From positions 32,001 to 96,000 of IMG/VR virus record IMGVR_UViG_3300005758_000132: 64,000 bases of DNA; one strand, written 5' to 3'. A program made the translations under genes and the position numbers. Positions 20,129 to 23,100 of this stretch are shown here, piece after piece; position 1 is the first letter of the stretch; every line of letters begins with the position of its first letter. Source of the DNA: a virus. The notes beneath the pieces are model-generated. The model had not been told where the DNA came from. It did no database searches and saw nothing but the letters and a program-made list of their open reading frames with translations.

Positions 20129-23100
20129 TCACTTCTTGATTTTCACACCGGCCATGAAGCTATTCTTGTACGGCGCGATATTGGTGTCAAACCACGCACC
20201 AACGCCGTCTTCAATGAACAACGCGCGAGCTTTGTCGTATGCTTCCTGCTTAGACTTTGCGCCCTTCACCATATCGCCTAGATTTTCCGCAAACGTAGGC
20301 TTTCCGATATCCGTTGCCGTCTTGTCTAGCTTGGACAAGCAAAACTTCTGCGTCTCGCCTCCGTCGCCCTTGTATCCCTTGAAGCGCATCTTCCAATAGC
20401 GAAAGGCGATATTCTTGTGACCAGGCAGATTACCGAGGTTCCACCATTCGTCACCCGGCGGTTTGCGGATGATCCTGTTTTTGACGTCGTCAACGCCAGT
20501 GCCAATCGGGTCTACGATCACTTTGTTCACGACATCGTAGTACAGCGAGTTGGCCGTAAAGTCTCGTCGCTGCGTGTCTTTTTCGAGGTCATGGTCAAAG
20601 GTAGGATCGCCAGTGAGCGTTCCTCCAGATGAAAGACTCGCGGTATCCAACGAGCCGTTGGTGACGATGCCCATGCTACCTTGGTACTTGGTCCAGGCAG
20701 CGGCGTGACCACCTGCGGTGAACGCGCCGAGCAGCTCTGAAGGCGGGGTCGTGATGATTAGGTCGAGGTCCTTCACCTGACCCTTTGCCTCGTCAACAGA
20801 TATCAGAGGCGTATCCCCTGACATGTTTTCGACGAGCGTGCGGCAGGCTCCGCCGATGATGTACACCTCGCCGCCCTTGTTGGTGAAGTAGTCGATCGTC
20901 CACTGGTACGACTTGGTGTCTGGCCCCGGAGGAGTCTTACCTTCTGGCAGAGTAGGCAGCATGGACGCGATGACCTGCTGCTGCCACGCTGACGCGGGAT
21001 GAATCTTATCCGCACTCAACTTCGCCAAGCTGGCTGGAGCGCTCTTAATCAGCGAGACGCCCTTGAACTCGTAATGCGGAATGACCGACTTCACGCCCGC
21101 CTTGTTCTTGACGATAACGCCGCTGATATTCGTTCCGACCACAGTGAAGTGCTTGCCGTCCTTCGTCGTAATCTCGCTACCAGAGCGCATAGCGATATTT
21201 TCATTTGAAGGCGTGAAGTACTGGGACTTCTTTTCCGCTTCAACCGCGGCTGTCGCGGTTGTGGGCGTGACTGGTCCACCCTCCGCCACCCAACCGCTGT
21301 CGAAGTAGAACTTGCCCTTCTGCCCAGTACGCTTTTCGTAGAGGTCAGAGATGAACGTCTCGAAGTTATTTCGAATGTCATTCTTGCGCTTCAAAGCTGC
21401 GTCAAGAAACGCTTTTTTCTTAACTGGATCTTTGAGCGCTCCGACGGCGTCAGCGTACTTCGTCACGGCGTCGAGATACTCGCTGTCAGGAATCTTCTCA
21501 ACACGCTCGATAGCGAACTTCATGTCCTTGGGGTCGAAATCGCCGAGCGCGTTGTCTCTAAACGCGCTCCAGAACTTATTGTAGTACGGAGGGGACTTGG
21601 CGTCTGGCACGTAGTCCACCGACAGCGCGTCTCCCTTACCTGGCTCGCCTGAAGGCCCTGGCGTGGAGAAAAACTTGAAGCCTTGGTCCTTATTGACGCT
21701 AACAATCTCGCCGGGTGCTCCGCTCGTTACGTCGCCAACCCATACCAGGTTTTCACCTGAGGTGTTGTGCTGGCTCATCAACCAGTCGAGCACGTGCTGA
21801 TTCGCTACACCTACTTTCACCTCCGCCGTGAGCGAGCTAGGCGGAGTGCCGGCGAGCGTCATAGGATTGTCGCCCAAGTACTTCTGAAGCACAGCGTGCT
21901 TGCCGTTTGGCATGACAATGGCTTTAGTCGGCAACGCAGCTCCGGGCGTTACGTAGTTTGCAACCTTGAAGAACAACTCCTGAACCGCCGTGCGGAACGG
22001 CGTTGTGATGTTCTCGTCGTAGGCTGCTGACGCCACCTTCACCAGGTACTTGTTTCCGTCCTTTTCGGTCAGAACAATCTTGCTGCCAGGCGACGAGCCG
22101 GCTTGAGGATGAGTTTTCGAAAGAACGTTTGAGTCTATCTGGTCGATATCTGCGTAGTCCGGAAAGTTGGCGCCTGTCAGAACTGGAAGACCCGACGCAG
22201 GAGCAGGAGCAGGAGCAGGAGCAGGAGCAGGAGCAGGAGCGACGATAGGCGTAGCGATAGGCGCAGAGGCTGCGGTGACAGACGCTGACGCTGCTTGCAT
22301 TTTCTCCAGCGCTTTAGCGGACGCTAACACCAAATTCAGCCAATTACTGTCGTTGGCACCTGCGTAATCTGACGGCGATACTAAACTTATAACTGCATCA
22401 AGTTCTTTGCCTGGTGTTTTGGAAAAATTATAATCGTTCCAAAAATCTTTTGCGTAATCAGGATCATCCGCCTGAGGTCCTGACGTCAATGCTGCGTCGA
22501 AAATGGATTTGACAGTAGCTGGGCTCAAGTTAGCTAGCTTAGCTACCGTGCTCTCAACTGTTTTTACACCAAGCACCTTTTTCTCTACTCCAGTAGCAGC
22601 CTGCTTTTTCTGTATCGCTTTAGCCAAAGCAATGGTGGACGCCAACCATGCGTCTTCATACGCCTGGGCTGATAAAATCGAAGCGGCGATTGAAGCGCCA
22701 AATGTTTTATCAAAGGCGTTGAGAGCGATGGCAACCTTATCACCAGCACCGGTGATTGCCGTCCATGAATGCCACCAATTATTCGCAGCGCCCGCCTTTC
22801 CAGGACCGTTTTTGAACGCGTCATCCAGCTGCTTGATAAGCGTGGGCGTTGTCCACGCCTCGAAGTCTGACGCTAGAGCGTCTATCTTTTTGAGTCCTGC
22901 GTCAGCCTTCTCAGCTTGTGTAGCGTTAGGAGGCAGCACGATGGAAGGCGCAACCGGGGCGGCGGGAGCAGGAGCAGGAGCAGGAGCAGGAGCAGCACTT
23001 TGCAGCGTTTTCAGCGCGCTACTGGCGGCTAGTACAGAGGCTACCCACGGGTTTCCATTCACAAGGCTGTAAAGATGCTCGATGTCATCAGCTTTGACTT

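Follow-up and report, generated by a model that had tools for sequence, protein, structure and literature searches.

Class II nucleotidyltransferases are the textbook case of enzymes in which a side-chain template, the EDxxR motif, picks the nucleotides without any nucleic-acid template. What would an enzyme of this lineage do if the template were replaced, the tRNA-binding part were missing and the remainder were fused to the end of a large protein encoded among the head genes of a phage? This question is raised by a 64,000-nucleotide stretch of viral DNA (hereafter the window), which covers positions 32,001 to 96,000 of the IMG/VR record IMGVR_UViG_3300005758_000132, a genome of 109,013 bp rated complete by CheckV. 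The enzyme makes up residues 1263-1525 of a 1525-aa protein, P0001, encoded by a single unbroken open reading frame (ORF) on the minus strand (window positions 20129-24706). The reading that we favour, with a confidence standing midway between doubt and conviction, is that of an untemplated ribonucleotidyltransferase of RNA 3' ends, carried in the phage head and released with the DNA. Its targets would be host RNAs, which it would either tag for decay or block at the 3' end.

The enzyme and its parts are located as follows, where conservation refers to 38 aligned relatives (24-41% identity to the query) unless stated otherwise, and residue numbers such as R159 are those of the 303-aa module used as the query (aa 1223-1525):

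20129..24706, minus strand: P0001, the whole multidomain ORF, with at least five distinct modules
20132..21040, minus strand: nucleotidyltransferase module as modelled (aa 1223-1525), comprising a class II head, a neck and a short helical C-terminal domain
20840..20854, minus strand: motif A, GGACR (aa 1285-1289)
20762..20770, minus strand: catalytic DxD, here DLD (aa 1313-1315), kept in at least 90% of the relatives
20645..20647, minus strand: D1354 in LDTAS (D132 of the query, kept in at least 90%), aligned with the Glu of the canonical (F/Y)E(I/V)AT(F)R
20549..20569, minus strand: motif B, RRDFTAN (aa 1380-1386), aligned with RRDFTINSLYY of poly(A) polymerase (PAP); R159 and D160 invariant
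20486..20512, minus strand: motif C region, DPIGTGVDD (aa 1399-1407); D177, G180, G182 and D185 invariant
20408..20422, minus strand: motif D equivalent G-H-K-N-I (aa 1429-1433), which replaces E-D-x-x-R in the hhalign alignment
20381..20401, minus strand: RYWKMRF helix (aa 1436-1442), counterpart of the canonical RxxRF, with R in 144 and K in 131 of 148 sequences
20132..20380, minus strand: short helical C-terminal domain (aa 1443-1525) with a basic tail at its end, which stands in for the body/tail of CCA-adding enzymes

The affiliation with the CCA-adding enzyme/PAP fold, suggested in the preliminary description from the letters of the DNA, is borne out by both profile and structure comparisons. 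The Pfam family PolyA_pol (PF01743) matches the whole protein with 42 bits and the module alone with 46.3 bits, against a cut-off of 23, and in the PDB the sequence comes closest to those of PAP I from E. coli and of CCA-adding enzymes from bacteria and human, with profile matches to PAP and CCA structures at E-values of 3e-14 to 3e-12. A comparison of the family profile with 40 cellular PcnB/CCA sequences by hhalign gave a probability of 99.9% and an E-value of 3e-33. The AlphaFold2 model of aa 1223-1525, for which the 38 relatives served as input, has a mean predicted local distance difference test score (pLDDT) of 92.4 and a predicted template modelling score of 0.90; class II CCA-adding enzymes and PAP occupy its top ranks in Foldseek. 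In structural alignments with VIA-align the head and neck of solved CCA enzymes and PcnB were matched with Z-scores of 16.7 (3h38), 16.3 (3aql) and 15.5 (1miv), over 220-240 residues and with root-mean-square deviations of 3.4-4.5.

The motifs GGACR, DLD and RRDFTAN, earlier reported to be intact, are indeed all present, with one correction: the Asp of the canonical GGxVRD is a Thr in P0001 (GGACRT), while GGxVRD is kept in most relatives. Between GG..R, itself kept in at least 90% of the relatives, and DxD the family has a specific insertion of 13-14 residues. D1354 is a candidate for the third acidic residue, and its alignment would be consistent with a catalytic role. Motif B serves ribose discrimination in class II enzymes. 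The residues that are invariant among the relatives are R159, D160, D169, D177, G180, G182, D185, R214, K217 and R219, the last three being R1436, K1439 and R1441 of P0001. Since the catalytic motifs are invariant or nearly so across the family, the enzyme seems to be under selection for catalysis. The module is apparently still able to work as a ribonucleotidyltransferase. It belongs to the class II lineage (CCA-adding/PAP I), of which it has only the head and neck, followed by a short helical cap.

Against this background of conserved motifs, the part that sets the nucleotide choice is replaced. The absence of EDxxR had been deduced from the string EWWNLGNLPGHKNIAFRYW, which we located at aa 1420-1438 (20393-20449). 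In the hhalign register, with which MAFFT agrees, the canonical E-D-P-V-R-M-L-R-A-V-R-F lies over G1429-H-K-N-I-A-F-R-Y-W-K-M1440; Gly thus stands for Glu, His1430 for Asp, and Ile1433 for the Arg that sets the specificity of PAP. Local HMMER alignments with PAP and the CCA enzyme of Planococcus stop at motif D and are shifted by one residue, and the Asp/Arg pair was found in neither of the two registers. The body/tail is short, as had also been remarked: P0001 ends 83 residues past the motif-D helix, and the structural alignments span the whole model, yet only chain residues 1 to ~285 of enzymes of 390-440 residues, i.e. the head, the neck and the first body helices. The tRNA-binding body/tail of CCA enzymes has no counterpart in the module.

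Is this loss a peculiarity of a single gene? A HMMER search over 1.84 billion cluster representatives, each standing for a 50%-identity cluster, retrieved 513 representatives at E<=1e-3 and 61 at E<=1e-10. In a census of motif D that comprised the best 150 of the 513 matches and the query (151 sequences, aligned to the family model), [ED]DxxR was present in only 9 sequences and something else in 139. The Asp column holds N in 81, D in 27 and H in 4 sequences, and the Arg column L in 46, K in 33, I in 27 and R in 17, which gives a family signature of x-N-x-x-[L/I/K]-x-x-R-[F/Y]-x-K-F; the His variant is that of P0001 and its closest relative (P0004, 43% identity). By the aligned sequences, then, loss of the template is a trait of the family and not a quirk of the P0001 gene. 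Decay of an ordinary CCA gene was considered and rejected, as the template substitutions are family-wide and the other motifs are invariant. Among cellular enzymes, [ED]D..R..R..R[FYL] occurs in 47 of 59 sequences, mostly as EDPVRMLRA(V/I)RF, and standalone phage CCA genes from IMG/VR (L014-L056) keep EDxxR 43-46 residues past RRDF, the sole exception being QDPLR in L024.

Published mutagenesis indicates what such substitutions may mean. When the template of the human enzyme was randomised, replacements of D165 and R168 were never recovered in selections for A-addition or for full CCA repair, while GDxxR and DDxxR were (PMC11784652); the Gly of the module is thus of the tolerated kind. The R215A variant of E. 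coli PAP lost polyadenylation and incorporated A, C and U at random, leading to poly(N) tails, and G-addition by that enzyme needed re-designed template residues (PMC2532741). Because the template Asp and Arg, indispensable in mutagenesis, are replaced and the tRNA-binding half is missing, CCA addition by the module is very unlikely. By analogy with these mutants the module should be either promiscuous or selective via new contacts. The altered specificity that had been postulated for it fits the mutagenesis of EDxxR in both enzymes (PMC11784652, PMC2532741).

The second half of our reading, that the enzyme is cargo of the phage head, is derived from the genomic setting. Features outside the enzyme that are needed here are the following:

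31052-33031, minus strand: terminase large subunit (PHROG 38, 8e-53)
24722..26656, minus strand: portal gene, directly upstream of P0001
18354..19136, minus strand: separate gene of a MuF-like minor head protein (PHROG minor head protein 2e-13; Pfam Phage_Mu_F 1.5e-4)
24533..24619, minus strand: first copy of the PPxG tag in P0001 (aa 30-58)
24179..24265, minus strand: second copy of the tag in P0001
19451-19540, 10649-10732, 9074-9157, 7339-7422, 6520-6603 and 4911-4994, minus strand: further copies of the tag

P0001 starts with GTG 15 nt past the portal stop, with the Shine-Dalgarno sequence GAGGTG 6-7 nt upstream, and 18 nt separate its stop codon (TGA, 20129-20131) from the next gene, provided with a GGGAGG of its own. 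The gene block runs in one direction throughout: terminase large subunit, an unassigned 1189-aa protein, portal, the P0001 gene, three small ORFs, the MuF-like minor head protein, prohead protease, a 236-aa ORF and the major capsid protein, with the tail sheath further on. The 236-aa ORF occupies the scaffold position between the protease and capsid genes and has no family match, and the gene between those of the terminase and the 1189-aa protein codes for a protein with a ParB N-terminal domain (Pfam 2e-6; 30333-31085, minus strand). This block, including the tail sheath, identifies the phage as a myovirus and places the P0001 gene in the head-assembly block. As regards the wider relationships of the phage, neither a megablast match of the whole 4.6-kb gene nor a tblastn match of the terminase at E<=1e-10 was found among 50,697 GenBank phage records, and the lineage appears, by these comparisons, to have no cultured relative.

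Close relatives of the module are likewise the C-terminal ends of long phage proteins (1100-1900 aa), and those that we looked up all come from metagenome assemblies. The consensus order in these relatives is a MuF-like region (…MPDAC.HC…HPHCQC…), an InPase pyrophosphatase domain, an unassigned middle and the enzyme. Of the 38 aligned members 25 contain InPase (PF18823), which amounts to nearly all full-length ones, while ART-PolyVal occurs in one and Hint/intein inserts in four; these splicing domains interrupt the N-terminal part of P0025 and of three other MuF-InPase-nucleotidyltransferase proteins. The portal gene lies upstream of the enzyme gene in three IMG/VR loci of relatives (L002, L003 and L006). 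P0001 differs from these proteins in having neither MuF nor InPase: MuF is a separate downstream gene, which matches the N-terminal part of the relatives' enzyme-bearing ORFs in tblastn, and no InPase was found in the 109-kb record, even at E<=1. What P0001 has instead, in its N-terminal region, is a tag of ~30 aa, PPxGFTPIPGSKxGGxHK..W.TWYP, which occurs in nine copies in seven structural-block proteins of the window, with two copies in P0001 and two in a 778-aa protein; besides P0001, at least five proteins of the structural gene block bear it. The tag was found in none of 142 loci fetched from other phages and genomes, so it is lineage-specific and of no use for linking the relatives; it is possibly a lineage-specific tag for loading or cleavage.

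Head-gene position, InPase in 25 of 38 relatives, their MuF-like beginning and the shared tag together make the term payload, used in the preliminary description, a reasonable one, and on these grounds we propose packaging and injection as follows. The 1525-aa protein would be synthesised late, enter the prohead and reach the next host together with the DNA; loading would depend on the repeated PPxG tag in the phage of the window and on the MuF fusion in the relatives. Once inside, the module would add untemplated ribonucleotides to a 3'-OH, most likely that of RNA, with no built-in specificity for tRNA. Its choice of nucleoside triphosphates would be relaxed or changed, and the products would probably be tails resembling poly(N) instead of CCA or pure poly(A), by analogy with the R215A mutant. 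The tagged RNA 3' ends may then be marked for decay, or the charging of tRNAs may be blocked, as a step of host take-over or counter-defence. In the relatives the fused InPase would remove pyrophosphate and drive the reaction, while the phage of the window, which has no InPase, would use the host enzyme. The near-obligate fusion to a pyrophosphatase fits a fast enzyme that releases pyrophosphate, and InPase domains of polyvalent proteins have been proposed to clear pyrophosphate for nucleotidyltransferases, although the partner was not identified (Iyer et al. 2017, PMC5512222). A narrower version of this scheme, which we put forward tentatively as possible, though less probable than the general one, holds that phages have re-designed the class II pocket (Asn/His plus Leu/Ile/Lys) for tails other than C and A, e.g. 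U/G-containing or mixed ones, added to host RNA at the time of DNA entry and driven by the fused pyrophosphatase in most members.

Several points weigh against the proposal of a packaged RNA-tailing enzyme. The substrate, the nucleotide and the location in the virion are all deduced indirectly, and the two strongest contextual arguments, MuF and InPase, stem from relatives, since P0001 itself contains neither. The Thr in place of the Asp of GGxVRD is a further departure from the canonical enzymes. Moreover, His1430 is the minority residue at its column (4 of 148 sequences), which implies that the pocket of the P0001 subclade may differ from that of the family, and it is by sequence and profile alignment that His1430 and Ile1433 are placed in the putative nucleotide pocket. 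Finally, the acceptor may be something other than RNA, an alternative that we consider unlikely.

This last alternative, which survives best, would have the module transfer nucleotides to a host protein, a small-molecule immune signal or a DNA end, as an anti-defence measure like the one proposed for Gad2 against Gabija. The phage protein Gad2, which is predicted to contain a nucleotidyltransferase domain, cancels the action of Gabija (bioRxiv 10.1101/2023.05.01.538930), and labels of both PolyA_pol (88%) and Gad2 (23%) occur in an Atlas cluster close to the query, a lead without an alignment. Loss of both the tRNA-binding part and the base template would suit a new acceptor, and nucleotide-like compounds would be equally conceivable as substrates of the fused InPase (PMC5512222). 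However, RRD, motif C and the basic RxxKxR helix are invariant, and in class II enzymes they serve the chemistry of RNA primers. In tblastn no SPbeta-like phage was matched among the 50,697 phage records.

The same chemistry could also be exerted by a protein that is not packaged or injected at all, acting late in the cytoplasm on phage or host transcripts, or as a polymorphic toxin of the MuF type with a downstream immunity gene. P0001 has no MuF domain, and the small ORFs that follow the enzyme gene both here and in relatives reproduce the layout of MuF polymorphic toxins (PMC5576092); these ORFs could be candidates for immunity, inhibitor or chaperone genes. Those of the window include a 73-aa ORF (19889-20110, minus strand) and an 85-aa ORF. 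In three relatives a 96-101-aa ORF directly follows the enzyme gene (L004:8837-9142, L008:8896-9189 and L010:8909-9199), with a mutual identity of 53-91%. When conserved immunity-like genes were sought, neither the 73-aa nor the 85-aa ORF of the window showed detectable similarity to this ORF. The position in a late operon among head genes, the fusion of the relatives to MuF and the sharing of the tag with at least five other structural-block proteins also speak against a purely cytoplasmic or toxin role, which we regard as rather improbable.

Repair of tRNA ends damaged by host defences was named as an example in the preliminary description; as the work of an ordinary CCA-adding enzyme it now looks the least likely of the roles open to an active enzyme. 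In its favour, the nearest solved folds are those of CCA-adding enzymes, and CCA enzymes are common in phages (PMC7824862). Yet the template D and R, indispensable for CCA addition in vivo (PMC11784652), are absent in both registers, the module has no body/tail to bind the elbow of the tRNA, and the standalone phage CCA genes keep EDxxR, apart from the QDPLR variant noted above; repair of tRNA ends is therefore very improbable. No tRNA gene was found in the 64-kb window, and no second PF01743 domain elsewhere in the 109-kb record. That the domain is catalytically dead and only structural or binding, like the degenerate kinase-like domain which adjoins it in P0001 and has lost its catalytic motifs in this phage, is hardly credible, despite the Thr in GGACRT and the lack of InPase in the record, as DxD, the third acidic residue, RRD and motif C are intact and (nearly) invariant across the family.

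In P0001 the order of modules is two PPxG tags, four helical repeats with (AP)n linkers, the degenerate kinase-like domain, a small conserved beta region and the nucleotidyltransferase module. The parts that lie between the tags and the enzyme are:

22307-23809, minus strand: four diverged helical repeats of ~100 aa with (Ala-Pro)n linkers (PAPAPAPAPAP four times), which match no Pfam or PHROG family
21227..22186, minus strand: protein-kinase-like domain (aa 841-1160) with degenerate catalytic motifs (AlphaFold2 pLDDT 72.8)
20921..21145, minus strand: conserved region upstream of the enzyme (aa 1188-1262), a small beta-rich element and a linker helix, common to P0002 and P0003; BLASTP alignments begin at aa 1185-1188

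Foldseek relates the kinase-like domain to Fam20C, CtkA, HipT and PI4KII-alpha (template modelling score ~0.4). Its motifs read QHNTSGEN and VNKDQ in P0001 and NHD[SA]HxG[NQ] and ID[KF][GA]Q in six relatives, and owing to the loss of catalytic motifs the domain of P0001 looks like a pseudokinase. In L002, L004 and L007-L011 homologues lie downstream of the enzyme gene, at a distance of no more than ~1.5 kb, and in L012 and L013 upstream of it (L002:10315-11118, L004:9976-10842, L008:9981-10847, L010:10155-11021, L011:9814-10686, L013:1360-2253); in L010 and L011 a protein of 2100-2300 aa begins with this domain. The adjacency of the kinase-like and nucleotidyltransferase modules is therefore conserved, and in P0001 the two are fused.

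As for the distribution of the family, tblastn of the module against the 50,697 GenBank records revealed no member in isolate phages, only head-level matches to cca/pcnB with at most 60% coverage and less than 30% identity. In 185,579 species genomes, by a search keyed on the shared RDF..N..YY motif, the best 80 loci comprised only cellular cca/pcnB genes, aligned to query residues up to 192-206, and no prophage copy. Distant members of the group without EDxxR are standalone proteins of 350-640 aa. Two of the members come from Heterolobosean amoebae, Willaertia magna (P0037, KAL9647971.1) and Naegleria lovaniensis (P0047, XP_044550069.1), which shows that the group is not confined to phages; both have G-N-P-x-K at the place of the canonical E-D-P-L-R and the short C-terminal cap common to the group. 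A metagenomic protein of 7704 aa (P0010) is matched by the module in four separate stretches, with GGAVR at 1480, 3280, 5070 and 6418, so that this giant chain seems to contain a related nucleotidyltransferase four times over. Another variant, a divergent module of 609 aa in L012/L013 (6651-8480), has YGDFTSG for RRDFT.N but keeps DPTGHGVEDA and RYWKF, and adjoins genes for MuF-like, kinase-like, protease and capsid proteins; to judge by its residues, the ribose-reading motif may have changed in this branch.

What is new in the family described here is a class II nucleotidyltransferase with a replaced template and without the tRNA-binding part, used, as we propose, as phage head cargo; full-text literature searches returned no description of an EDxxR-less head-cargo family. 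To our knowledge, RNA tailing with such a non-C/A pattern by a class II enzyme has not been described in bacteria or their viruses. If active, the family would serve as nature's own experiment on what determines the nucleotide choice of class II nucleotidyltransferases, as well as a candidate for a new early activity of host take-over or counter-defence on RNA 3' ends. It would also offer an explanation for the InPase of polyvalent proteins, the partner enzyme of which was not identified in the 2017 survey. If the pocket has indeed been re-designed, P0001 and its relatives would represent a virion-delivered RNA-tailing effector.

Among known enzymes, class II CCA- and A-adding enzymes (T. maritima 3H38/3H39, B. 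stearothermophilus 1MIV, Planococcus 6QY6, human 4X4W) share with the module the fold of head and neck (Z 14-17) and the motifs A, B and C; the family differs from them in having neither EDxxR nor the body/tail, and in its own 13-14-aa insertion and short helical cap. Standalone phage tRNA nucleotidyltransferases, such as Bacillus phage G gp522 and those of Aeromonas and Agrobacterium jumbo phages, also have the PolyA_pol head and are the nearest matches in isolate phages and in BFVD, but they match in the head only (at most 60% of the query, less than 30% identity), keep EDxxR, have 390-500 aa and are not fused to head genes; a fold search of BFVD returned only ordinary phage tRNA nucleotidyltransferases and giant-virus proteins. 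The non-canonical poly(A) polymerases FAM46/TENT5 resemble the module in combining a compact nucleotidyltransferase with a helical domain at a similar size (Z 13-14 over ~245 residues); they are, however, eukaryotic, have an identity of 10-12% and share class II motifs only in the Pol-beta core, so that the resemblance is one of fold. With the MenT/AbiEii toxins (DUF1814), a mechanistic resemblance is possible, in that RNA 3' ends would be blocked by tailing; no match to them was found, a Pfam scan of P0001 at E-values up to 1 giving only PolyA_pol and a weak Caudo_TAP.

In its architecture and genomic position P0001 resembles polyvalent and MuF-fused phage effectors (PMC5512222; PMC5576092), which are likewise large multidomain proteins encoded next to portal/MuF genes, and with which the relatives share MuF, InPase, ART-PolyVal and Hint, in contrast to P0001, which has neither MuF nor InPase. 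The Pol-beta nucleotidyltransferases described for polyvalent proteins are minimal ones on conjugative elements, and these surveys make no mention of a nucleotidyltransferase of the CCA/poly(A) type (PMC5512222; PMC5576092).

In sequence the best match in the PDB is E. coli PAP I (PcnB; 3AQK/3AQL/3AQM), with E-values of 2.5e-6 for the single sequence and 2.7e-14 for the profile, VIA Z-scores of 16.2-16.3 over 229-236 residues, and GG..R, DxD, RRDFT.N and motif C in common. PcnB is a cellular standalone enzyme that has a further ~130 residues of body/RNA-binding part and keeps EDPVR, the Arg of which sets its choice of ATP (PMC2532741), where the module has Ile1433. PAP also carries a signature, IIGRRF..hV, past the DxD strand; opposite its template consensus (sRiIGRRF~lvHv) the hhalign alignment shows, for the family, a gap and residues that are unrelated. 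Nevertheless, like the activity that we propose for the module of P0001, PcnB tails RNA 3' ends without a need for the shape of tRNA.

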